Assembly (NCBI GenBank): GCA_016699595.1
Contig: CP064982.1
Location: 203,647-267,646, forward strand
DNA length: 64,000 nt
Direction: 5' to 3'
Source: a bacterium
GTDB taxonomy: Bacteria; Patescibacteriota; Dojkabacteria; GCA-016699595
Below the pieces are notes generated by a model, which did not search any database, was not told the DNA's origin, and worked only from the letters and a program-made list of their open reading frames with translations. Positions within the stretch are counted from its first letter, which is position 1. Each line of letters begins with the position of its first letter. Both the position numbers and the translations under genes were made by a program. This document shows, in pieces, positions 13,558 to 58,039 of this stretch.

Positions 13558-14574
13558 TTAATTAACTAAAAGATATCCAAATCCAGCAATCATTGCAGCA
13601 TTGTCAGTGCAGAGTATTTGAGGTGGAAAACTTACTTTTATATCATATTGATTCATTACTCTAGTCATAGTTTCTCTAAGTTTAGTGTTTCCTGCAACTC
13701 CTCCTGCGAGATAAATTTGAGAGGCACCATACTTTTGCGCAGCTTGCAAAGTTTTTTGACAAAGTATATCAACTGTAGTTTTTTGAAAACTTGCTGCTAC
13801 ATTACTTTTTTCTTCTTCAAGTTTTTCAACTTCTTTCAATTCTTTCGCTAACTTTACTACATGAGTTTTCAAACCTGAAAAACTAAAGTTTAAATTTTCT
13901 TCAAATCCATTCCCGGTCATAGGATGTGGTAATTCAAATTTATTTTCATCTCCAAGTTTTGCCAATTTTTCTAAGTTTACTCCTCCAGGATATGAAAGAT
14001 CAAGGACTCTAGCAACTTTGTCAAAACATTCTCATGCTGCATCATCTACAGTTTCACTTATTATTTCCAGTTCAAATTTATTATCTACATTTTTGAGTAA
14101 TATCAACTGAGTGTGTCCACCAGAGACTAGAAGACAAAGAGCTTGATTTGGCAACTTCTTTGTAATGCTAGATCTATTATTTGCAACAACATTATCAGAT
14201 TCTTTGAATTCAAGAAAATTTGCCCAAACATGAGCTTTGAGGTGATCAACTTCGAGAAGTGGTTTATCTACTGACAATGCAAGTCCTGAAGCATAAGCAT
14301 AGCCAACTGAAAGTGCAGGTGGAAGTCCGGGATTTCGCGCAATTGCGATAGCATCAATATTATCAATAATTACTTTAGCTTGTTGTAAAGCCTCATCTAT
14401 AACTATTGGTAATCTTTCGAGGTGAAGTCGTGAAGCAATTTCAGGCACAACTCCACCATATTTTGCGTGCAAGTCAGCTTGGGAAGCAATTATATTTGAC
14501 CAAATTATTTGACCATTTTCAACAACTGATGCAGCAGTTTCGTCACATGTTGTTTCGATTCCTAAAATTAGCAT
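13558..14574 (-). CDS. tsaD: tRNA N6-adenosine threonylcarbamoyltransferase TsaD (Kae1/Gcp family), interrupted by one in-frame TGA at 14032-14034
   Basis: The track ORFs 14032..14574 and 13558..13965 are in the same frame. Read through, the sequence is ...TVDDAA[TGA]ECFDKVARVLDLSYPGG..., which matches the universal TsaD motif DDAAGEAFDK with TGA at the conserved Gly. N-terminal part: MLILGIETTCDETAASV...; C-terminal part: ...LAGGVAGNTKLRE... Confidence 0.75.
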
Positions 14575-14626
14575 AAAAAATCTTATGAAAAATTCAAACT
14601 ATTTAGTTAATATTATTTTTGTAAAA

Positions 14627-15274
14627 TCATTTGCCAATAAGTAACTTTAGTGAATTTATTACTTTTGGCATATTCATCATTCCCATTCCAACAGGATAAT
14701 ACATTGGAAAACATTTTATTTCTTTTTCTCCAATATTTAACATTTCAAATTCTAAATTTTGATACTTACTTACTGAAATTCTTTTATTCAAAACAATCGA
14801 ACTTACTTGATTACCAAATAACATTGTATTACTTGGGTTAAGTTCTGATAATTCTTGATACATCAAATCTAAATAATTTCTAAACACTTTATCTTTCAAC
14901 GGCTTGGCATCAATTTGTGTACATTTTGCCAAATTTGTCACATAAACTTTGTTTTCAGCTAAATAATTATACAATGACTTTGCAAATTCTGCTGTCCAAG
15001 CATCATTATTTTGAGTATTCTTAAAATATTATTCATTTAACATCCCAACTCTTTGAAATAATTTCCAAACATTTTTAGTTCCAATCCAAGGTGCCTGAAT
15101 TCCTGTCCAGCTTTTGTGTGAACTAATATTTTTCGCAGTTGGATTCATGAAGACAAAAACATATTTTGGATTTTCTGTGCAACCAGCTCCATATATTGAA
15201 TTGAAGTTTGTATCACCATGCAGTTCGTGTAACTTATCAAACTCGGAATGTAGGTGTGTTAGTTGAAGATTCAT
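14627..15274 (-). pseudogene. uracil-DNA glycosylase superfamily-like protein (divergent) interrupted by an in-frame TAA at 15029-15031
   Basis: Track ORFs 15029..15379 and 14627..14974 share one frame. The N-terminal part has an FVFMNPTAKN motif (compare G[IM]NPG / GEAPG) and the C-terminal part has VYVTNLAKC (compare [VI]YITNVVKC). The family call is low confidence. Confidence 0.4.
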
Positions 15275-16056
15275 AAAATATTGATAAACATAAATATTAT
15301 AACCGCAGCAATTCCCCAAACAGGCAACATTAATATTGATGTATATCTTCTCATTATTGGATAATCGAAATATTCCCAATGTTTATACCTTTTACTAACT
15401 ATTAAATTAATTGTATTACCAAGAGCACCTTCTCCTATTGATCCGGTAACGCTACCTATAAGAAATATAAATAAAAAATTGGTTGAGATATTTGTTAAAA
15501 ATACCCCCAAAAATATAATTGGTAAAATTATACTTAGAAAATATCTGCTAAATCTAAACTGTAAGTTCAATTTTTCATTGTCTAAATTATAAAACTTACT
15601 TAGTAGAAAAATTGTTGCAATCATTATTGAAAATAGCAAAAGAAGAAGTTTGAGAATTATTAGTTGATTTGGATTTATATTTAATTTAATTGCAGATGGT
15701 ATAAAATTATTAGTTGTTGCAATAATTAATAAAACGCCTCCAGCATAATATCCAATATTCACTAAGCTTGCATATTTAATCAAATCAAATGAATTATCGG
15801 CATAACTATATAATCTGTGTTTTTGAAATAAGTGATAAATATAACTAAACGAGTATTCTGCAATAACAAAAACTACTGACATTGAGATTGCTATAGCTGC
15901 ATTTTTACCGAAAAACATTAAACCTATCGAGATAAATAAAATATAATTCAAGATTGTAATAATAAAGTAGCTCACATTGAAGTCTAAATGTTTAATAAGA
16001 TTGCGATGTATTACGCTAGTTAATAGGTAAGTTAGGAGAAAAGTTAATGTGAACAT
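15259..16056 (-). CDS. polytopic integral membrane protein (about 7 TM helices), unknown function
   Basis: 261 aa, highly hydrophobic. The track ORF ends at a TGA (15271) that overlaps the ATG of the downstream UDG-like ORF in an ATGA arrangement. Confidence 0.5.
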
Positions 16057-16086
16057 GATGAAGATTTTATATATATTTGCAAAATT

Positions 16087-17241
16087 CTAACAAAATTTTT
16101 CAACCAACTCATTATAAAACTCTAAATTCTGCAAACTTGCAATTCTAAATGCATTACTATCTTTGATTTTGAATAATTGTCTTAGATATTTGAAACTAGT
16201 TGTTCTAAGTTCTTCACTTTTTGAGTTAGGATTTATCATTCTGTCATCATGTTCATATTTGGCTGAATTTATCCTGATTGTTTCAAAACTAGAACGAGAT
16301 GAATTATTACTACAATGATCACAGAGCGAGTCATTCCAAGTATAAATAGTCCCGTGCCTTGCGTTTCTAGTTGGCAATACGCAATCAAAAAGATCATAAC
16401 CATACTTCAAGCATTTTATAATGTCATGAGGCGCACCTACTCCCATTGCATAGTTATAAACTTTCTTCATTGGAGACACATTCAAAACATAATTCAAGCT
16501 ATTTACAAGTTCTGCATTAAACTCAGCAAGTTCATCCAAAAAACTTCCATCTTTATCAAGTGGCCAACCTCCCCAACCATAACCACCAAATCCGATTGCA
16601 GCAAGTTTATCAAAACAATATTTCCTTAGTTCAAAATTTCCTCCACCTTGAATTACACAAAAAATAAGAGGTTTGTAATTATTATCAAATTCATTTATTT
16701 CTTTTAGTCTTTTTTCAAAATAATCTTTACAAATCTTCGCCCAACGAACAGTTCTTTCAACTGATGATTTTATCCTACCTATTTCAGAATCTGGTTCAAG
16801 AGGATCATCAAGTACAACTATGACATCAGAATAAAGTGCAAACTGAATTTCAATTGATTTTTCTGGTGTTAGTTTATGGATACTTTTGTCAATCGGTGAG
16901 CTAAATTTGAAAAACTCGTCAGTTACTCTTCCTAAACCTCTTTTTGCGAAACTATATGCTTGAAAACCTCCAGAATCAGTTAAAATTCCACCTTGCCAAT
17001 TTGTCAAATTCCTAAAGTTATATTTTTGAGAATTCGTTAAATTTTTCAATTCTTCTAAACTCATATCTCTACCAGTTCTATTCAAATAGTTTAGATAATT
17101 ATGCAAAGTATTTGTCACAATTGCAGAAGTTCCAATTTGTTTTAGATCTGACCAAGAAACTGAATTTACAACTCCATAAGTTGCATCAGGCATGAAAAAT
17201 GGTGGATTTTGGGTTGAGAAATTATTTTTCAATTGATACAT
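16087..17241 (-). CDS. tgt: queuine tRNA-ribosyltransferase (tRNA-guanine transglycosylase)
   Basis: ILTDSGGFQ catalytic motif, MGVGAPHDII, and C-terminal QNLEFYNEL (compare HNLHFY). The Zn-site region is CDHC. Confidence 0.8.
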   Translation of the reverse strand: MYQLKNNFSTQNPPFFMPDATYGVVNSVSWSDLKQIGTSAIVTNTLHNYLNYLNRTGRDMSLEELKNLTNSQKYNFRNLTNWQGGILTDSGGFQAYSFAKRGLGRVTDEFFKFSSPIDKSIHKLTPEKSIEIQFALYSDVIVVLDDPLEPDSEIGRIKSSVERTVRWAKICKDYFEKRLKEINEFDNNYKPLIFCVIQGGGNFELRKYCFDKLAAIGFGGYGWGGWPLDKDGSFLDELAEFNAELVNSLNYVLNVSPMKKVYNYAMGVGAPHDIIKCLKYGYDLFDCVLPTRNARHGTIYTWNDSLCDHCSNNSSRSSFETIRINSAKYEHDDRMINPNSKSEELRTTSFKYLRQLFKIKDSNAFRIASLQNLEFYNELVEKFC

Positions 17242-17885
17242 ATGACTGTATAAAGTCGTAGATTTTTTCGGATGTATTTCAAAAAATCACCTTCTCCAAT
17301 TCTTGCTTTGCCTATTTCTCTAACTAACTTTTCAAATTTGATAAGTTCCATATTACCACAAATCAACGGATTTTTTATCCTTGAGATTCTGATAACCTGA
17401 GTTTCAACACTTGGCTTTGGTTTGAAATCATTTTTTGATAAATCCATCAGAATATCAAAGCCAAAATAATTTTGATATACAATTGATTTTAGATTATTGC
17501 GAAAAACTCCCATAAACATTTCAGCAACTTCTTTTTGAACTATAAAAACCCCATATTGAAAATGACTATTTTTCATCAATTTAGTCAAAATTTCTGAAGT
17601 AAATGCAAAAGGCAAGTTAGAAAGTACTTGATAATCAAAATCTGGCAATTCAAAATCAAAGAAATCAACATTATAAATATTCAGCTTTGGATAATATTTT
17701 TTGAGGTTTGTAGCAAGTTCGATATCTTTTTCTAGAATAATTGAGTGAGGTTTCAAAAATTTGCTGAATTCTCCGTGTCCACCACCTATTTCTAAAGTTG
17801 GCAAGGAAGAATCTTGATTTGCAAGAATTAGTTTGACTTTACCTGAATTTGTGAAAAAGTTTTGAGTATACTTCAGTGAAAACAT
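17229..17885 (-). CDS. rsmA: 16S rRNA (adenine1518/1519-N6)-dimethyltransferase RsmA/KsgA
   Basis: TQNFF (GQNFL), EIGGGHGEFS SAM motif, and VLSNLPFAFTSEIL (SNLPYnISTpil). The TGA stop overlaps the tgt start by 13 nt. Confidence 0.8.
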   Translation of the reverse strand: MFSLKYTQNFFTNSGKVKLILANQDSSLPTLEIGGGHGEFSKFLKPHSIILEKDIELATNLKKYYPKLNIYNVDFFDFELPDFDYQVLSNLPFAFTSEILTKLMKNSHFQYGVFIVQKEVAEMFMGVFRNNLKSIVYQNYFGFDILMDLSKNDFKPKPSVETQVIRISRIKNPLICGNMELIKFEKLVREIGKARIGEGDFLKYIRKNLRLYTVICIN

Positions 17886-18445
17886 TATTCAATAATTGTA
17901 GCATTTCCTAACCTTACAATTTCAAAATGGTTATCAAAAAGTTTGACTATTGTTGAAGGTTTTTGCAAAGATTTGTAGTGAAATTCATAAATAAAATCTA
18001 TTTGGCTTCTTATATCTTGTGGTATGTCATGAGAATTCATAATCGGATCTTCTCCAGAATGATTCAATGATGTTTGAGCAATCAAGCCAATTTCGTTGAT
18101 GAGTTCTGACAACCATTTAACATGTGTGACTCTAAAACCAGAATATCTTTTCAAACCATCTACCATAAATAAATGACTATCAACTTCTACGAGACTTTTC
18201 AATGGCACAACAAATGTCATGTCGCTGACATTATTTTTGTGTATGAAGTCCAATTGATAATTATTCAGCTGATATAGTTCAATTACTTTATCAAGTGAAT
18301 TGCTAAGTATAAGTAATGGTTTTGAATAATCTCTTTTTTTGATTTCAAAGATTGTTTGAATTGAATTATGATCACTATACCTGCAAAATAATCCAGGCAC
18401 AGTTTCAGTTGGACCGGCAAATACTTTATACTTACTAAAAATCAT
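17885..18445 (-). CDS. tsaC: L-threonylcarbamoyladenylate synthase TsaC/YrdC family
   Basis: FAGPTETVPGLFC...KKRDYSKPLLIL and PSTIV, the YrdC/Sua5 signature. Adjacent to ksgA and tgt, forming an RNA-modification gene string. Confidence 0.7.
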   Translation of the reverse strand: MIFSKYKVFAGPTETVPGLFCRYSDHNSIQTIFEIKKRDYSKPLLILSNSLDKVIELYQLNNYQLDFIHKNNVSDMTFVVPLKSLVEVDSHLFMVDGLKRYSGFRVTHVKWLSELINEIGLIAQTSLNHSGEDPIMNSHDIPQDIRSQIDFIYEFHYKSLQKPSTIVKLFDNHFEIVRLGNATIIE

Positions 18446-18471
18446 AATATTAGATTACCAGTAAAAATCAT

Positions 18472-21400
18472 TTAAATAACTATACTAACAATTCTACCTT
18501 TGACATAGATAAACTTTTTGATTTCTACCCCTTGCAACCATTTAGCTATATTCATATCTTGCATAACTTTTTCCTTCAAACTTAATTCGTCATCATCTAC
18601 ACTCAACTCAAGCTCTCCCCTTAGCTTTCCATTAACTTGTACACCTATTACCATCTTCTCTTCAGATATAAGTTTCTCATCCCAAGTTGGCCAATTTGTT
18701 TGATGAATACTAACCTCTTCAGTCTCGCTTAGATCAACAGATTCCACAGAAGAAGCAATATTAATTGTTAAATTATTGTATATTTCATCAGTTATGAATG
18801 GTGCAAACGGTGCAAGTAATTTCATGTAAGTCAAAAAGTCATCAATTGAAATAGTCATACCTTCTTGTTCAATCAAGTTTTGGAACTTCATAAACTCAGC
18901 AACACAAGTATTGAATTTCAATTCCGGAATGTTTGTAGTTACATACTTGATCAATTTCTGTAATTCTGCTTTGACTTTTGGAGTTGAGACATAGCGTACC
19001 ATTTTAATGACTGGCAAATAATGAACATTATCTTTCAACATATACTTGTCTTCTCCACATTCTACAAACCCGAATTTTCGGTAAAGGTTAATCGCATTGT
19101 TTCCACTAACTACCTCAAGATACAAATCATGAATTGCAAATTTAGTTATTATAACTTCCATAGCAACACCTCCAATTCCTTTAGCTCTAAAATCTCTATC
19201 TATGTATAGAACTAGTTTCCTATGTTGATTTTTATCTTGAGATAGAAAGCTACTTAACCAACCTATAACTTTTCCTTCTGATTTAATTGTTAAACTGATT
19301 TTTCTGTTGGAATTTGCAAACCTTGGAATAATGTTTGTTAAATCGGTACTTTCATCAGGAACTATCATTCCTTGAATATTTTTTAGAATTTCTATATCAA
19401 TTCCAGTTTCAGGACTTATATTATTATCATACCAACCTTCAACTTGAATTCTTCTGGCATCTCTAATTTCAGATTCTTTTATTGATTCAAAAGTTAAATT
19501 ATATTTTTGAATTACTTCTTGAGCCTTTTCTGAATAACTATCTTTGACATTAGTATTTCCCAATTGTTCAGCAAAATTCCAAACTCTATCAATATATCTT
19601 CTCACTCCAACTACGGTTTCTTCGCTCCAATTCTTGCTTTGCTCAAGCGGACCCATAAACATTTCATAAACACGCAATGTATCAGCACCATACTTCTCAC
19701 AAACTGTGCTAGGATTCACGATATTTCCCCATCGCTTGCTCATCTTTCTACCATCAGGACCTTGAATCATGCCTTGATGTCTCATTTTATAAAAAGGTTC
19801 GGAATAATTTATCAATCCTTTGTCAAAAAAGTATTTCGTAAAAAACCTAGAATACATCAAGTGCAAAACTATATGCTCTGGACCAATCATATATAGATCT
19901 GTTGGTAACCAAGCATTACAAAGTTCACTATCAAAAGCCTTTGTATCGTCATTTACTGACATATATCTCATATAATACCAGCTTGAATCTATAAATGTAT
20001 CGAGAGTGTCAAATTCAAATCGAGAGCCTACTCCGTAAAGTTCTTCAGCTAATTTTTTGTAACTTTCTGAATATGCAATTGGAGATTCTCCAGTTGGTTT
20101 AAATTCAACATCAGTTGGAAGTTTGAGTGGTAAATATTTTTCATCAACTGGTTTTACAAAGTATTTTTTACCATCAAATGTTACTTCTTTGAGTTCATTA
20201 TAATCTTTGTTTTGGGAATTATCCTCAGTGACAGGAATGTAAACTATTGGAATTGGACAACCCCAATATCTTTGTCTTGAGATCAACCAATCACGAAGTC
20301 GATAAGTTATTTTTGTGCTACCTATTCCAAGTTTTTCAAATTCTTTTATAATCCTTTTTTTAGCTTCAGGAACAGTTAGTCCATTCAATATATCTGAATG
20401 GATCAATCTTGAATTTTCATCATCTGTCAAAAATGGAAGTTTCTCACACCTATCAACTTCACACTCACAATTATCCTTGCAGTTATTACAATTAGGATTA
20501 TTACAGCCGAGATTTCCTTTTGCATCTATTCGTTTTATGACCTGAACTATATCACATCCGTATTTTGTTGCAAACTCAAAATCTCTTTCATCATGAGCAG
20601 GCACTGCCATTATGGCTCCGGTTCCATAAGTATTTAGTACATAATCTGCAACAAATATGGGAATTTCAGCTTTTGTCATTGGATTTATAGCCTTTATACC
20701 TTTCACTTCAACTCCTGTTTTTTTTATTTGAGATTCTCTTTCCAGTTGAGATTTCAACTTTGCTTGATTTTTATAATCTATAATGTCTTGATTATTAGTT
20801 ATAAAATCTTGCATTTCAACGAGCATAGCATGCTCAGGAGCAATTACCATAAAAGTTGCTCCATAAATTGTATCTGGGCGAGTCGTGAAAACTTTGAGAG
20901 TATTTCCATCGTTAGAACCTTCCGCTTCCGTCACCTTCCTAGAAGGAAAGATTTGAAACTCAACTTCTGCACCTTCAGATCTGCCTATCCAGTTCTTTTG
21001 TGCAGCTTTTGTGCTCTCTGGCCAGTCAACTTCATCCAAATCTTGGTAAAGTCTTTCAGAATAATTCGTTATCTTCATAAACCATTGTTCCATATCTTTT
21101 TGAAGAACTAAACTTTCACATCTTTCACACTTTCCATTTATAACTTGTTCGTTTGCGAGGACTGTTTGACAGCTAGGACACCAGTTTACAGGAGCATTTG
21201 CTCTATATGCTAAACCATCTTTGTACATTTGCAAGAAAATCCATTGAGTCCATTTATAGTAGTTTTCCCAATGAGCAGCAAGTTCATGAGTTTCCCAGTC
21301 TGTAGAGAATCCGACCAAATCTAGTTGCCGTTTGAAATTACTTATGGCTTCTTGTGTTGTTGTATTTGGATGAATACCAGTTTTTATAGCATAATTCTCG

Positions 21401-21660
21401 GCAGGTAGCCCAAAACTATCCCAACCAATGGGCAATATTACTTCTTTGCCACGCATTCGTTCAAACCTAGCTAAAATATCAACCGGATTGAAGCAATACA
21501 TATGACCTACATGTAGTCCATAACCAGAAGGATAAGGCAAGGCAACAAGTGCATAATATTTATCTTTTTCTGACTTTAGGTTTGGCTTATAAAGTCTTTG
21601 TTCTTTCCAAACTTCTCTCCATTTGGAGTCAATTTGTTGGTGTGGGAATTTGTTTGTCAT
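18472..21660 (-). CDS. leuS: leucyl-tRNA synthetase carrying an in-frame GNAT acetyltransferase domain insertion (about aa 701-898) and a Cys-rich insertion in the editing region
   Basis: HIGH-type PYPSGYGLHVGH and KMSKRWGN. A complete GNAT motif A/B (LYIDRDFRAKGIGGVAMEVI...VVSGNNAINLYRKFGF) sits between the catalytic core and the anticodon-binding ELKFNTCVAEFMKFQN...LAPFAPFITDE. 1062 aa. Confidence 0.9.
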   Translation of the reverse strand: MTNKFPHQQIDSKWREVWKEQRLYKPNLKSEKDKYYALVALPYPSGYGLHVGHMYCFNPVDILARFERMRGKEVILPIGWDSFGLPAENYAIKTGIHPNTTTQEAISNFKRQLDLVGFSTDWETHELAAHWENYYKWTQWIFLQMYKDGLAYRANAPVNWCPSCQTVLANEQVINGKCERCESLVLQKDMEQWFMKITNYSERLYQDLDEVDWPESTKAAQKNWIGRSEGAEVEFQIFPSRKVTEAEGSNDGNTLKVFTTRPDTIYGATFMVIAPEHAMLVEMQDFITNNQDIIDYKNQAKLKSQLERESQIKKTGVEVKGIKAINPMTKAEIPIFVADYVLNTYGTGAIMAVPAHDERDFEFATKYGCDIVQVIKRIDAKGNLGCNNPNCNNCKDNCECEVDRCEKLPFLTDDENSRLIHSDILNGLTVPEAKKRIIKEFEKLGIGSTKITYRLRDWLISRQRYWGCPIPIVYIPVTEDNSQNKDYNELKEVTFDGKKYFVKPVDEKYLPLKLPTDVEFKPTGESPIAYSESYKKLAEELYGVGSRFEFDTLDTFIDSSWYYMRYMSVNDDTKAFDSELCNAWLPTDLYMIGPEHIVLHLMYSRFFTKYFFDKGLINYSEPFYKMRHQGMIQGPDGRKMSKRWGNIVNPSTVCEKYGADTLRVYEMFMGPLEQSKNWSEETVVGVRRYIDRVWNFAEQLGNTNVKDSYSEKAQEVIQKYNLTFESIKESEIRDARRIQVEGWYDNNISPETGIDIEILKNIQGMIVPDESTDLTNIIPRFANSNRKISLTIKSEGKVIGWLSSFLSQDKNQHRKLVLYIDRDFRAKGIGGVAMEVIITKFAIHDLYLEVVSGNNAINLYRKFGFVECGEDKYMLKDNVHYLPVIKMVRYVSTPKVKAELQKLIKYVTTNIPELKFNTCVAEFMKFQNLIEQEGMTISIDDFLTYMKLLAPFAPFITDEIYNNLTINIASSVESVDLSETEEVSIHQTNWPTWDEKLISEEKMVIGVQVNGKLRGELELSVDDDELSLKEKVMQDMNIAKWLQGVEIKKFIYVKGRIVSIVI

Positions 21661-50724: not shown

Positions 50725-53277
50725 ATGTCTACACCAAAACTTACAGCAGAACAGCAATATTTAGATCTGAAATCAAAATACCCTGATTGTATCTTATTTT
50801 TTCGTATGGGAGATTTTTACGAAGTTTTTGATAATGATGCTCGTGAAATGAGTAAAGTTTTAGGTTTAACTTTGACAAGTCGAGATAAAGGTGAGAAAAA
50901 ACGACCAATGGCTGGAATTCCACATCACGCGCTGAACCAATATTTAGGAAAAATTGTAAATTTAGGTTACAAAGTTGCAATTGCTGAGCAAATGGAAGAT
51001 GCCAAGTTTGCCAAGGGAATCGTGAAAAGGGAAGTTACAAAAGTTGTAACAGCAGGAACTTTGATTGACGAGAAAAATTTACAAGAACAAGAATCAAACT
51101 TTATTCTAGCTTTGAATTATTCTAAGTATAAAAACAGTATTGTTTGGGGTTTGAGTTATCTTGAACTTTCAACTGGAGAATTCAAACTTATAGAACTTGA
51201 AACTAGTCAAAATTATTTAGCTCAAAATAAACTACCAAGTAAAATAATTGACAAAATTTCAACTTTGCAACCAAGAGAAATATTACTTCCAGAAAAACTG
51301 AAGTACTTCCTTACTCCGATCATCCAAACAAGACTTACTTTGATCGAAGAATTCCAGTTTGACTTTGATATAAGCTATAAAAATATAATCCAACATTTCA
51401 AACTTGCAAATTTAGTTGGATTTGGTATTGAAAATTATAAAATTGCAATTGGTGCAGCTGGAGTTATATTGAATTATGTCAAAACTAGTGAAAAAACTGA
51501 ACTTAGCCATATCACAAAACTAGTTTTTGATAACTTTTCAGAAAATATGAATTTTGACTTTGCAACTATACGAAGTCTGGAACTTATTGAACCTATAAAT
51601 TTATCAAACTTAAATTCAGATAAACCTACTACTTTGCTTGGAGTTTTGGATAAAACTAAAACTCCGATGGGAAAAAGACTGATTCGAAGTTGGGTTTTGA
51701 AACCTTTGACAAATTTAGCTCAAATCCAAAATAGACTTGATAATGTCGAAAACTTTTTGAAACTAGATAATGATAATAAATTAGTTATTTCAAATTCGCT
51801 GGATAATATTTATGATATAGAGCGAATTTGCGGAAGAATTGGACTTCAAACAATTTCACCGAAAGATTTTGTAGCACTAGATGGTTCTATATCTGAAATA
51901 TTAAATTTAATTCAAACTTAAACTAAATTAAATTCTGAAAATAAGCAAGGCGAATTAAAAGAAGGTTTAATATTAAATAAATTAATTAAGTACTTTGATG
52001 AATTAAATATAATTAAAAACAAAATTAGCTCATCCCTACTTTCAAATCCAAGTTTTGAGATAAATCAAGGAAATATTTTTCAAGATAATTATAATTCTGA
52101 AATTGCAGAACTTCGAAATATTTCAACAAATTCAAAAGATTGGATATTAAATTATCAAGCAGAACAAATTACTCAAACACAAATATCAAACTTGAAAGTG
52201 AAGTTTAATTCTGTTTTTGGATATTTCATAGAAGTATCAAATTCGCAAACTTCAAAAGTTCCAGAAAATTATATCCGCAAACAAACTATTGCTGGGGGTG
52301 AAAGATATATAACTTCTGAATTGAAAGACATGGAGCAGAAAATCTTAACTGCAGATGAAAAGTTGATTGGTTTAGAAAAAGAATTATTTCTAAAGTTTAG
52401 AGAAGAATTTATACAACATATTCAAACTTTGCAAAAAGTATCACAAATTATAGCAGAAGTTGATACTTTATTTTCTTTTTCAGAAGTTGCAAAGGAAAAT
52501 AATTACACAAGACCTATATTTACTGAAAAATCGCAAGTACTAGCTATTACTTCAAATCGTCATCCAGTAGTTGAAAAACTAGTTGAAAACTTTACTTCGA
52601 ATGATTTAAATCTGAATAGTCAAAACTCAATGATGATTTTGACAGGTCCAAATATGTCTGGAAAATCCACATATATTCGGCAAGTTGCACTTTTAGCTAT
52701 AATGGCTCAAATTGGAAGTCTTGTTCCTGCTGAAAGTTGTGAGCTAAGTCTAGTTGATAGAGTTTTTACTCGAGTTGGAGCAAGTGATAATTTGTCAAAA
52801 GGTGAATCAACTTTCATGGTTGAAATGAATGAAACTGCAAATATTTTGAATAATGCGACTTCAAATTCACTTTTGATTTTAGATGAAATTGGACGAGGAA
52901 CTTCGACTTTTGATGGAGTTGCTATAGCTTGGTCAGTCATGAAGTATATTTACGAAAATCTGAAGTGCAGAACTTTGTTTGCAACGCACTATCTAGAACT
53001 TACTGAACTTGAGAAAAAGTATGATGGTATTTCAAATTATTCCGTTCAAATTGCTGAAAAAAATGATCAAGTGATTTTTATGCATAAAATAATTCCTGGT
53101 AAAGCGCAGAAATCTTTCGGGGTTCATGTTGCAGAAATTGCAGGAATGCCAAATGAAGTTATAAATAATGCTAAGGAAATTTTGAAATCTTTTGAAGATA
53201 GTCAAAATAAAGTCAAAAAGGTAGTAAATAAAAAAATAAATTCAGAAAAAATTCCTCAAATGGGATTGTTTGAGTAA
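50725..53277 (+). pseudogene. mutS: DNA mismatch repair protein MutS interrupted by one in-frame TAA at 51919-51921
   Basis: Track ORFs 50725..51921 (domain I, GDFYEVFDNDA) and 52192..53277 (ABC ATPase GPNMSGKST...DEIGRGTSTFDG) are in the same frame. The 270-nt gap between them translates without further stops into MutS-like clamp/lever sequence. Confidence 0.8.
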
Positions 53278-56234: not shown

Positions 56235-57848
56235 CTATTGAATTATCCCTCTTCCGAAGCAAACTTCGCCATTGTAGAAAACTGCACTTTGACCTGAAGA
56301 GATTCCACGAACTGGTTCTGCGAAGTTTAGCTCATTATTTTCTAAGTTTAATGTTGCTCGAACAGGTTTTGCTCTATAGCGAACTTCAACTTCAAGATCA
56401 ACCAACCCACCTCGTCCTTCGGACACTCCTCCAATGGAGGAGAATAATTTTGAATTTATGAAATGAAGGTTTTCAAGTTGGCAACTATTTTTATATAACT
56501 TCGGATTATCAGTTCCTTGAACTACATACAAAATATTTTTTTCTAAATTCTTGCTACTTACAAAATATGGTTTTTGATGTGGCGAAATTACTTTGATTTT
56601 ATTCAGACCTTCTCGTTGACCTATAGTATAAAATGCAATCCCATCATGCTCACCTACTTTAAGCCCACTGTCTTCATCTACTATAATTCCAGGTTTATAA
56701 GCGATATTATTCCTCAAAAACTGAGCAACATCAATATCTCCTATAAAACAAATTCCTTGAGAATCTTTCTTTGTTGCAATTGGAAGTTCAAACTCTTCTG
56801 CTAATTTTCGAACTTCACTTTTTTGTAAATGACCAATTGGAAATAGTGTTTTGCTAAGCTGAAATTGATTTAGATCAGACAGAAAATAAGACTGATCTTT
56901 GTTTTGATCCAAACCTTTTAGTAAAAAATATTCAACAGATTTAGATTGATTATTTACATTAGCAAATTCTACAGTTGGGCCTTCCTGATAAGGAGGGTAA
57001 ATTTCGCTTTGCGAAATTTGGGAGGTTAAATAATTTTTAATTTTAGTGCAAACAATTTCAAAATTATACTCTACATCATTACTTTCAAATCTTAAAACAT
57101 TTATTCCTAGACTATTTAAATAATTCGTTCTTACTTTATCATATTCTAAACCTTCAGTAGTAAAGTGTTCTGCACCATCAAGTTCTATTGCAAGATTATA
57201 TTTTGAACAATAAAAATCTACTATGAAATTTCCTATTGGTTTTTGTCTTGTAAATTTATAATTTTCTAGTTTTGATAAGAAGTCATACCAAAGATGATTT
57301 TCAGACCTAGTTGCTCGTTTGTGATGTCTATTTAATTTTGTCAAGTTTGTATTGTAATTAACCCACCGTCCCGCTTCGCTGTCCACCTCCCTTGACAGGG
57401 AGGCCACCAAATTTGGAGTGATATTGTCAGTACTTGACTTTACTCTTGCATAATGTCCTGTTGCGATCATATCAGCGTCTTCCTCTAATGCTCTATTTAG
57501 AAAAGTTCCAAACTTGATTTTACTATTGCAAAGTATATCTGGGTTTGGAGTTCTACCTGCTCTATATTCATCAAAAAAATAATTTACAACTTGTTCTCTA
57601 TATTCTTTTTCAAAGTTATATATCTTCATCTCAATTCCAAGTTTGTCGCAAACTAACTTCACATCTTCTACATCCTTTTCCCATGGACAATCAGTTTGAA
57701 TTCCAAAATCTTCACCTGACCAATTTTTCATGTAAACTCCAACTACATTATCTCCATTTGATTTCAAAAGTGCTGCAACTACTGAAGAATCAACTCCTCC
57801 GGACATTGCAACGAATATTGTTTTTTTGCCGCTGTCTATAACATTCAT
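56235..57848 (-). CDS. mnmA: tRNA-specific 2-thiouridylase MnmA carrying an in-frame ~170-aa insertion that contains a complete DUF559/Vsr-like endonuclease domain
   Basis: PP-loop SGGVDSSV, ATGHYAR, then the insert, then EYFLLKGLDQNKDQSYFL (canonical LRGLD.NKDQSYFL) and GICFIGD. The insert contains FTRQKPIGNFIVDFYCSKYNLAIELDGAEH...GINVLRFESNDV. Confidence 0.85.
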   Translation of the reverse strand: MNVIDSGKKTIFVAMSGGVDSSVVAALLKSNGDNVVGVYMKNWSGEDFGIQTDCPWEKDVEDVKLVCDKLGIEMKIYNFEKEYREQVVNYFFDEYRAGRTPNPDILCNSKIKFGTFLNRALEEDADMIATGHYARVKSSTDNITPNLVASLSREVDSEAGRWVNYNTNLTKLNRHHKRATRSENHLWYDFLSKLENYKFTRQKPIGNFIVDFYCSKYNLAIELDGAEHFTTEGLEYDKVRTNYLNSLGINVLRFESNDVEYNFEIVCTKIKNYLTSQISQSEIYPPYQEGPTVEFANVNNQSKSVEYFLLKGLDQNKDQSYFLSDLNQFQLSKTLFPIGHLQKSEVRKLAEEFELPIATKKDSQGICFIGDIDVAQFLRNNIAYKPGIIVDEDSGLKVGEHDGIAFYTIGQREGLNKIKVISPHQKPYFVSSKNLEKNILYVVQGTDNPKLYKNSCQLENLHFINSKLFSSIGGVSEGRGGLVDLEVEVRYRAKPVRATLNLENNELNFAEPVRGISSGQSAVFYNGEVCFGRGIIQ

Positions 57849-58039
57849 AAGTTTCAATAATTTACACAAAAATTATACCACTTCCATAGGGGTTTAACTT
57901 ATTTTAGATAAAGTTACAATATTTCTCAAAAAATGCTTGACTTATACCTCTTTTTTGGTACAATGACTTTGTCAACCAACAATATTGTCTTTGACTATGT
58001 CATTCGATGATATTGTAGTTGGAAAATCTTTGGTTTTTC

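Follow-up and report, generated by a model that had tools for sequence, protein, structure and literature searches.

A GNAT N-acetyltransferase domain nested in the leucyl-tRNA synthetase of a Dojkabacteria bacterium, and its relatives beside other enzymes of aminoacyl-tRNA synthesis

Bacterial aminoacyl-tRNA synthetases (aaRSs) are usually regarded as conservative, with tRNA binding or error editing as the tasks of their extra domains. The leucyl-tRNA synthetase (LeuRS) gene leuS considered here lies in a stretch of 64,000 nucleotides from an uncultured, ultra-small Dojkabacteria bacterium of the Patescibacteriota (assembly GCA_016699595.1, contig CP064982.1, positions 203,647 to 267,646 of the forward strand; hereafter the window), and its product contains, nested within it, a complete acetyl-CoA-dependent enzyme that is apparently functional, in contrast to this conservative view. 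The locus therefore raises the question of whether a GNAT N-acetyltransferase domain is truly part of this synthetase, where the domain might have come from and what it might do in such a place.

The nested domain and its host enzyme

The gene and its parts are located as follows (window coordinates).

18472..21660, minus strand: leuS, bacterial-type LeuRS with a nested GNAT domain, 1062 aa, one continuous open reading frame (ORF)
19558..21660, minus strand: N-terminal part of LeuRS, aa 1-701, with Rossmann catalytic core, CP1 editing domain, KMSKS loop and stem-contact helix (Pfam, motifs, model)
21502..21513, minus strand: HIGH signature, HVGH, aa 50-53 (motif reading)
20869..20886, minus strand: threonine-rich editing motif of CP1, TTRPDT, aa 259-264 (motif reading)
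19735..19746, minus strand: KMSKS signature, KMSK, aa 639-642 (motif reading)
19501..19557, minus strand: N-side linker, aa 702-720, a loop and a short helix (aa 711-719), with lower model confidence (pLDDT blocks 71-83)
18991..19500, minus strand: complete GNAT N-acetyltransferase domain, aa 721-890 (Pfam and structure model)
19420..19437, minus strand: family motif GWYDNN, aa 742-747, at the end of alpha1 and followed by ISPETG (motif reading, alignment)
19168..19188, minus strand: motif A, RAKGIGG (R-x-x-G-x-G), acetyl-CoA pyrophosphate-binding loop, aa 825-831 (motif reading)
19066..19098, minus strand: motif B, NAINLYRKFGF, alpha4 with its conserved Tyr, aa 855-865 (motif reading)
18475..18990, minus strand: C-terminal part of LeuRS, aa 891-1062, with helical anticodon-binding bundle (helix from aa 894) and C-terminal tRNA-binding domain (Pfam, alignment to 1h3n, model)

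An earlier note, made from the sequence alone, had proposed that a full GNAT domain is inserted in frame within LeuRS, and both profile searches and structure modeling agree with this. Three Pfam models score above their cut-offs on the whole protein, namely Acetyltransf_1 (PF00583, 38.5 bits against 20.7, aa 781-865), Acetyltransf_7 (PF13508, 30.9 bits against 27) and Acetyltransf_10 (PF13673, 27.2 bits against 23.6), and the GNAT scores rise when the excised segment is used instead of the whole LeuRS. A structure of LeuRS aa 676-1062 was modeled with AlphaFold2 (mean predicted local distance difference test score, pLDDT, 81.5; predicted template modeling score, pTM, 0.68) on an alignment, A8, that contained GNAT relatives and four LeuRS C-terminal pieces, both in the right columns. 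In this model all seven strands and four helices of the canonical GNAT fold are present in the order beta1-alpha1-alpha2-beta2-beta3-beta4-alpha3-beta5-alpha4-beta6-beta7 (aa 722-889, pLDDT 87-97), with the motif A loop between beta4 and alpha3. In an alignment of 18 sequences of the family described below, the G, W and first N of GWYDNN are invariant in all 18 (D-N-N being conserved in the core family), as are both glycines of motif A and the Y, G and F of motif B, and the domain in the window retains every family-invariant residue. A chance resemblance of motifs is thus not the case, since the profile matches exceed their thresholds and, in a tblastn search of the window with free-standing family members, the GNAT segment was the sole match (170-175 aa, E 1e-26 to 1e-29).

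The motifs quoted in that note are all present (RAKGIGG at aa 825-831, NAINLYRKFGF at aa 855-865, KMSK at aa 639 and KFNT at aa 915), whereas the limits that it gave need correction. Its range, aa 701-898 (exactly 18967..19560 in the window), contains the domain but overshoots it, by a linker of ~20 aa on the N side and by ~8 aa on the C side, so that aa ~721-890 is the proper extent. Similarly, the insertion does lie between the KMSKS core and the anticodon-binding domain, but not directly, because it begins ~60 aa past KMSKS, after the stem-contact helix (aa 680-701 in the model). On the C side, a link of four residues leads into the LeuRS helix that starts at aa 894, and sister LeuRSs have no counterpart of the N-side linker.

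The host is a bacterial-type LeuRS that matches TIGR00396 (leuS_bact) with 849.6 bits (cut-off 548.4) in two stretches, the first of which pairs aa 7-729 with profile positions 3-701 of 843. Its closest match in the PDB is the LeuRS of Thermus thermophilus (1h3n; phmmer, E 1e-175), in which residues 637-693 and 723-876 correspond to aa 639-695 and 898-1062, respectively, so that ~200 residues stand in place of a ~30-residue segment; AHDERD is conserved in this alignment. Pfam matches were obtained for tRNA-synt_1, tRNA-synt_1_2, the editing domain (PF13603, 177.8 bits) and Anticodon_1 (aa 898-1024). The last match, together with the alignment to the T. thermophilus enzyme, upholds the view that the anticodon-binding region is intact, and the helices of the anticodon-binding bundle and the C-terminal strands are predicted to be intact despite the insert. 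As judged from the sequence, the HIGH, KMSKS, CP1 editing, anticodon-binding and C-terminal parts of this LeuRS are all intact.

We then considered if the fusion might be an artefact or a decaying gene. It could be a chimera made in assembly, a pseudogene with a frameshift, or an intein or intron that is spliced out on the way to the mature protein. A contig from Logan (L001, SRR11673978) corresponds to window positions 17961..20140, spans both junctions and shows no substitutions; its gene was called as two ORFs (P0001 and P0002) with the break inside the GNAT domain, which might suggest a pseudogene. However, the contig differs from the window only by four single-base deletions over 2.2 kb of leuS and the next gene, all of them in A or T homopolymers, and considering that these deletions are scattered and also break the neighboring gene, the split ORFs can be ascribed to read errors. 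The fusion is present in two independent data sets. Moreover, the ORF is continuous in the window and the invariant residues are kept, GC content is unchanged between the insert and its flanks, and no direct or inverted repeats were found flanking the insert. A frameshifted pseudogene was rejected on the grounds of the continuous ORF and the read errors, and an intein because LeuRS has no Hint, intein or homing-endonuclease match in Pfam and the insert is GNAT from end to end. An artefactual origin appears extremely improbable.

A small GNAT family and its hosts

When the insert alone was used in a word-indexed search, we recovered the fragments of the organism itself and distant GNATs of 165 aa, and nothing else. 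Relatives came from the host side. The 120 best LeuRS matches, which derive from candidate phyla radiation (CPR)/Patescibacteria metagenomes (those named include Dojkabacteria and Magasanikbacteria), were aligned and their core columns were defined. Around 50 of these 120 carry inserts of at least 40 aa, which fall at five hot spots (core positions).

~244: hairpin just before TTRPDT in CP1; GNAT and Ham1
~368: end of CP1; NUDIX
435-440: PF06821/PF00561 alpha/beta hydrolase
517: PF14907/PF10706 nucleotidyltransferase
647: loop of the anticodon-binding domain; GNAT, in the LeuRS of the window only

In total, hydrolases of PF06821/PF00561 are nested in 20 of the 120 proteins, NUDIX domains in 13, Ham1 in two, PF14907/PF10706 nucleotidyltransferases in two, and a methyltransferase and a HAD domain in one each, and some LeuRSs (e.g., P0081, P0105 and P0112) hold two or three nested domains. 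GNAT domains occur in seven relatives (P0007, P0008, P0015, P0016, P0018, P0039 and P0056), always at core position 244, which is ~480 residues upstream of the site used in the window; there the corresponding CP1 hairpin (aa ~235-258, just upstream of TTRPDT) has a 17-aa loop and no domain. The nearest relatives, P0007, P0008 and P0009 (each ~72% core identity), differ from one another by clean presence or absence, with GNAT and NUDIX in P0007, GNAT only in P0008 and NUDIX only in P0009; at the position of the GNAT domain in the LeuRS of the window, each of the three has an ordinary loop of 50 residues. The comparison with related LeuRSs that the earlier note had called for thus places a GNAT at this site in one protein only, among the best 120 relatives.

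Further searches gave a similar picture. No other protein with a GNAT domain followed by the LeuRS anticodon-binding domain was found in searches of the representative library; since this library is clustered at 50% identity, more examples could be hidden under insert-free representatives. Scanning JGI metagenome contigs with the junction region and with the family alignment A4 revealed no relatives, and GTDB species genomes scanned with the whole LeuRS contained only distant LeuRSs (37-44% identity).

Two minor features of the host may be mentioned here. The LeuRS of the window is without the leucine-specific domain, as aa 633 aligns to T. thermophilus residue 578 and aa 639 to residue 637 (window ~19747..19765, minus strand). 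A Cys-rich mini-insert with seven Cys, CNNPNCNNCKDNCECEVDRC (aa 386-405; window 20446..20505, minus strand), is present at the end of the CP1 editing domain, at the hot spot where relatives hold a NUDIX domain, and may be a metal-binding knuckle or a remnant.

A profile built from the CP1-site copies detected free-standing proteins of 174-184 aa (P0127-P0130, E 1e-43 to 5e-39) with the same motifs. The insert of the window aligns with free-standing proteins of 171-184 aa from their first strand to their last residue (33-35% identity, 40 invariant columns), and because it aligns end to end with stand-alone proteins, the inserted unit corresponds to a whole gene. The insert and the CP1-site GNATs have in common GW-(Y/L/R)-D-N-N-x-x-x-x-T-G after alpha1 and Y-L-P-x-x-x-M in beta7. 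In an exhaustive HMMER search of 1.84 billion representatives with the family profile, only six clusters were found at E<=1e-30, against a generic GNAT background of 28,636 at E<=1e-3; the fragment P0001 of the organism itself matched the profile with E 1.6e-46. The members include stand-alone genes (one of them annotated from Candidatus Woesebacteria), LeuRSs with the domain at residues ~246-444, a DUF1653-GNAT fusion (P0248, 239 aa) and a fusion of an ANT(2'')-like nucleotidyltransferase (PF10706) with GNAT (P0251, 328 aa). Nucleotidyltransferases of PF10706/PF14907 were also observed nested in the LeuRSs P0068 and P0123. In addition, and more distantly, the valyl-tRNA synthetases (ValRSs) P0250 (1252 aa) and P0338/P0391 (959 aa) carry a related GNAT after the CP1 editing domain (aa 632-796 and 488-630), with the motifs GWHDNF and GWMQNF.

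The four divergent free-standing members that could be placed are all located just downstream of gatA or between gatA and gatB, in the following arrangements.

L002-L005: gatC-gatA-GNAT-115 aa-gatB
L006-L010: gatC-gatA-cupin-like-DUF1653-GNAT-gatB
L011: gatA-Peptidase_S51-GNAT
L018 and L019 (Woesebacteria): gatC-gatA-cupin-like-PF06821 serine hydrolase-DUF1653-GNAT-gatB, the GNAT gene overlapping the start of gatB by 8 nt

In CPR operons, several small genes recur in the spacer between gatA and gatB (L018 4776-6001; L006 3365-4151), namely a cupin-like gene (134-139 aa), DUF1653 and a PF06821 or S51 hydrolase. The PF06821 hydrolase of the gat operon shares 23-29% identity with the PF06821 copies nested in LeuRSs, and the LeuRS P0249 has GNAT (aa 246-413) and PF06821 (aa 437-603) in tandem at the CP1 hairpin. 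Neither a second copy of the GNAT family nor gatCAB was found in the 64-kb window.

By sequence (full length and motifs), the insert belongs with the GW-D-N-N family, but it does not do so by position, as it lies neither between gatA and gatB nor in the CP1 hairpin. In a neighbor-joining (NJ) tree, the CP1-site copies form one clade without it; of 200 bootstraps, 92 placed its sister group entirely in the free-standing clade and 2 entirely in the CP1-site clade. It also has EGWYDNNISP, IYVDR and YLPV in common with the stand-alone genes. This placement and these shared motifs suggest a second, separate capture, and the GNAT domain of the window was probably acquired independently of the CP1-site copies, with only moderate support. 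A move of the domain from the CP1 hairpin to the loop of the anticodon-binding domain was rejected on the NJ tree and its bootstraps.

The belief, expressed in the earlier note, that aaRSs are not otherwise fused to acetyltransferases in this manner cannot be maintained for sequence databases, because a GNAT is also carried by the seven LeuRS relatives, by the two ValRSs and by the proteins behind an NCBIfam model, NF040702 ([quoted passage not shown]). The CP1-site LeuRSs of CPR bacteria (the seven relatives and P0249) resemble the LeuRS of the window in host, GNAT family, in-frame nesting in a surface loop and R-x-x-G-x-G; they differ in that their GNAT lies just before TTRPDT and groups apart from that of the window. 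Like LeuRS, the ValRSs P0250 and P0338 are class Ia editing aaRSs with a related GNAT, inserted in their case after CP1. NF040702 likewise describes a GNAT in a class Ia editing aaRS, but the host is isoleucyl-tRNA synthetase (IleRS), not LeuRS, and the LeuRS of the window scores 57.8 bits against a cut-off of 1999. The free-standing gat-operon GNATs (P0127, P0128-P0130, P0246 and P0247/P0392 from Candidatus Woesebacteria) are the closest sequence relatives of the insert (33-36% identity over the full length), with the same length, EGW(Y/L)DNNISP-TG, IYVDR and YLPV; they are, however, separate genes of 171-184 aa, often beside DUF1653, a cupin-like gene, or a PF06821 or S51 serine hydrolase. 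We found no description in the literature of aaRS-GNAT nesting, of ValRS or CP1-site fusions, or of nested enzyme domains in CPR LeuRSs. Thus, aaRS-GNAT fusion is a kind already present in databases, while the insertion site in the window is new and, judging from the sequence comparisons, probably acquired independently.

Two side observations concern the loci that contain the closest LeuRS relatives. Immediately downstream of leuS, a gene (L016 10951-11595; L017 6259-6900) encodes a protein of 213-214 aa with a weak or faint match to ATE_C (aminoacyl-tRNA-protein transferase), of which no homologue was found in the window. In L016, a class I aaRS (tRNA-synt_1 ... Anticodon_1, DUF5915; 14095-17098, minus strand) was predicted as a pair of overlapping genes (527 and 476 aa), which represent either a split synthetase or a frameshift.

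Possible roles of the nested acetyltransferase

The above results show that leuS has taken up, in frame, the whole gene of a small, CPR-restricted GNAT family, at a surface loop that follows the stem-contact helix and precedes the helical anticodon-binding bundle, where the domain is attached by linkers of ~19 aa on the N side and ~4 aa on the C side. We infer that it is an active acetyl-CoA-dependent N-acetyltransferase. The alpha1-alpha2 region of GNATs forms the wall of the acceptor-substrate site, and the acceptor-side motifs are found in four contexts: the anticodon-binding-domain loop in the window, the CP1 hairpin, the position after CP1 in ValRS (in a related form) and the stand-alone gene between gatA and gatB. 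Because GW-D-N-N...T-G and Y-L-P are conserved irrespective of host and site of attachment, one acceptor is probably common to all contexts; and because the attachment point varies, a fixed channel between the active sites is not expected. The fusion would more likely tether the GNAT to, and co-express it one-to-one with, enzymes that make or repair aminoacyl-tRNA. On the analogy of known enzymes of similar fold, we tentatively favor, at somewhat less than even odds, a tethered N-alpha-acetyltransferase acting on an amino-acid-type substrate, which might be a near-cognate or other non-cognate amino acid, a toxic, non-protein amino acid, a mimic of an aminoacyl-adenylate or a tRNA that has been mischarged. 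Acetylation would then serve, in addition to CP1 editing, as an accessory step of detoxification or quality control. These functional claims rest on context and fold similarity, the context being the repeated, independent association of a rare GNAT family with enzymes making or correcting aminoacyl-tRNA.

As for fold similarity, the nearest solved folds are phosphinothricin acetyltransferase/BAR, methionine-sulfoximine acetylase of the PA4866/MddA type, ArsN and the tabtoxin resistance protein. Such N-alpha-acetyltransferases of amino-acid analogues share 12-21% identity with the insert, are without the GW-D-N-N motif, and none of them is nested in an aaRS; for ArsN1a (cut-off 170 bits), the family scores 24-43 bits and the insert 24.2-27.8. 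Yeast Mpr1, and MccE and RimL, which acetylate aminoacyl-nucleotide antibiotics, may be named as functional likenesses. As described in two papers, the TacT, AtaT and ItaT toxins are GNATs that acetylate the alpha-amine of aminoacyl-tRNA (PMC7367177, PMC7595197). Their reaction is one candidate for the nested domain; however, these toxins are paired with antitoxins, whereas the GNAT of the window has neither a partner gene nor a net positive charge. They are absent from its top 50-60 structural neighbors, and PADLOC gave no match to a defence or toxin system for it.

Several observations weigh against a role in amino-acid chemistry. CPR LeuRSs also nest NUDIX, Ham1, nucleotidyltransferase, methyltransferase and HAD domains without an obvious link to such chemistry, and the GNAT has been gained or lost between very close LeuRS relatives; this variety of nested domains and their presence or absence in close relatives fit a non-specific model of permissive loops. 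The GNAT may accordingly be a passenger unrelated to leucylation, considering that, in streamlined genomes such as these, small accessory genes could settle in the spacers of essential operons such as gatCAB, or in those loops of essential genes that tolerate insertion, where they would gain expression and be hard to lose. The five hot spots with unrelated insert families in ~50 of 120 LeuRSs, the clean differences among P0007, P0008 and P0009, the varied extra genes in the gatA-gatB spacer and the presence in the same window of an MnmA with a nested DUF559 endonuclease-fold domain are all consistent with this, and the strongest arguments for hitch-hiking are the variety of the nested domains and their rapid gain and loss. 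However, random lodging would be expected to strike many other essential genes, whereas one rare family is found here in at least four separate arrangements, all with aminoacyl-tRNA enzymes; the GNAT is paired with a PF06821 hydrolase both in the gat operon and within LeuRS, and all invariant residues are kept in the window. We consider a mere passenger rather unlikely. Another possibility, also doubtful, is a protein acetyltransferase, in which the tethered GNAT would modify lysines or N termini, either of LeuRS itself or of other translation proteins such as ribosomal proteins and GatCAB, and thereby couple the level of acetyl-CoA to translation capacity. Acetylation of lysines in Escherichia coli LeuRS, including the lysine of KMSKS, lowers its activity. 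RimI and archaeal Ard1-type N-terminal acetyltransferases, whose targets are related to translation, are the best named sequence relatives, the RimI, Ard1 and Naa structures are strong fold matches, and a variable attachment point suits a tethered modifier acting in cis, for which flexible attachment at any surface loop would suffice. Nevertheless, RimI and Ard1 are without the extended alpha1-alpha2 segment of the family, and scores against the rimI model (TIGR01575) are far below its cut-off of 86.4 bits (24.8 bits for the whole protein, 28.5 for the segment, 48-56 for free-standing members). The acceptor motif is, moreover, conserved over LeuRS, ValRS and the stand-alone gene, and such conservation across differing hosts argues for one common substrate rather than host-specific self-modification.

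It is also conceivable, but very unlikely, that LeuRS serves as a tRNA-binding platform from which a base of tRNALeu is acetylated (ac4C-type modification). The part of LeuRS that received the insert, the anticodon-binding domain, runs along the bound tRNA, and GNAT domains do make ac4C in tRNA (TmcA, Nat10/Kre33). Yet no TmcA-type GNAT was matched, the best matches being small-molecule or protein N-acetylases, and since the family also occurs at the CP1 hairpin and stand-alone in gat operons, no single tRNA nucleotide would be reachable from all of these positions. The GNAT domain of the window has a net charge of 0 (pI 7.0, with a range of 5.5-8.7 over the family), and being charge-neutral it would need the host enzyme for any tRNA binding.

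Returning to the tethered N-alpha-acetyltransferase, a rare family has joined enzymes that form aminoacyl-tRNA in at least four arrangements (two LeuRS sites, ValRS and the gatCAB operon). By the logic of gene fusion, this points to a functional partner of aminoacyl-tRNA synthesis without a described counterpart, and the recurring association suggests an undescribed accessory activity of the enzymes that make aminoacyl-tRNA. If this partner acetylates amino-acid analogues or mischarged tRNA, it would represent a new layer of fidelity or detoxification in organisms with minimal genomes. A wider proposal, which we regard as quite improbable, is a CPR accessory module for aminoacyl-tRNA quality control or detoxification, consisting of the GNAT, often with PF06821, either as genes of gatCAB operons or nested in LeuRS, ValRS and perhaps IleRS. 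In its boldest version, the GNAT may N-acetylate either an aminoacyl-tRNA that was mischarged or an amino acid that is toxic or was misactivated, and the product may then be cleared by the hydrolase, in an "acetylate-and-hydrolyse" form of trans-editing captured by LeuRS at least twice. If the GNAT is a passenger only, the nested domains of CPR LeuRSs would still show, as a natural catalogue, where a class I synthetase tolerates insertions, which is of use in protein engineering and in understanding the packaging of genes in reduced genomes.

Other genes in the window

The genes that follow leuS are on the same strand with small gaps or overlaps, namely tsaC/Sua5 (17885..18445), a KsgA-type rRNA dimethylase gene (17229..17885) and tgt (16087..17241), the whole run covering 16087..21660 on the minus strand. 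The window also encodes the alpha and beta subunits of phenylalanyl-tRNA synthetase (PheRS), glutamyl-tRNA synthetase (GluRS), a class II aaRS of the Asp/Asn/Lys type, a Tyr/Trp-type aaRS and RsmH. The MnmA mentioned above (tRNA 2-thiouridylase, 544 aa; 56235..57869, minus strand) is a second case of an enzyme inserted into a tRNA enzyme of the window, with DUF559 (PF04480, Vsr-like endonuclease fold, 87 bits, aa 183-281) nested in frame between ATGHYARV and LLKGLDQNKDQSYFL. Finally, mutS is present as two ORFs on the plus strand, of which one (50725..51921) encodes domains I-III and the other (52192..53277) the end of domain III, part of domain IV and domain V; they are ~270 nt apart, where the missing piece should be encoded, and the split could be due to a frameshift, a pseudogene or an intervening element.

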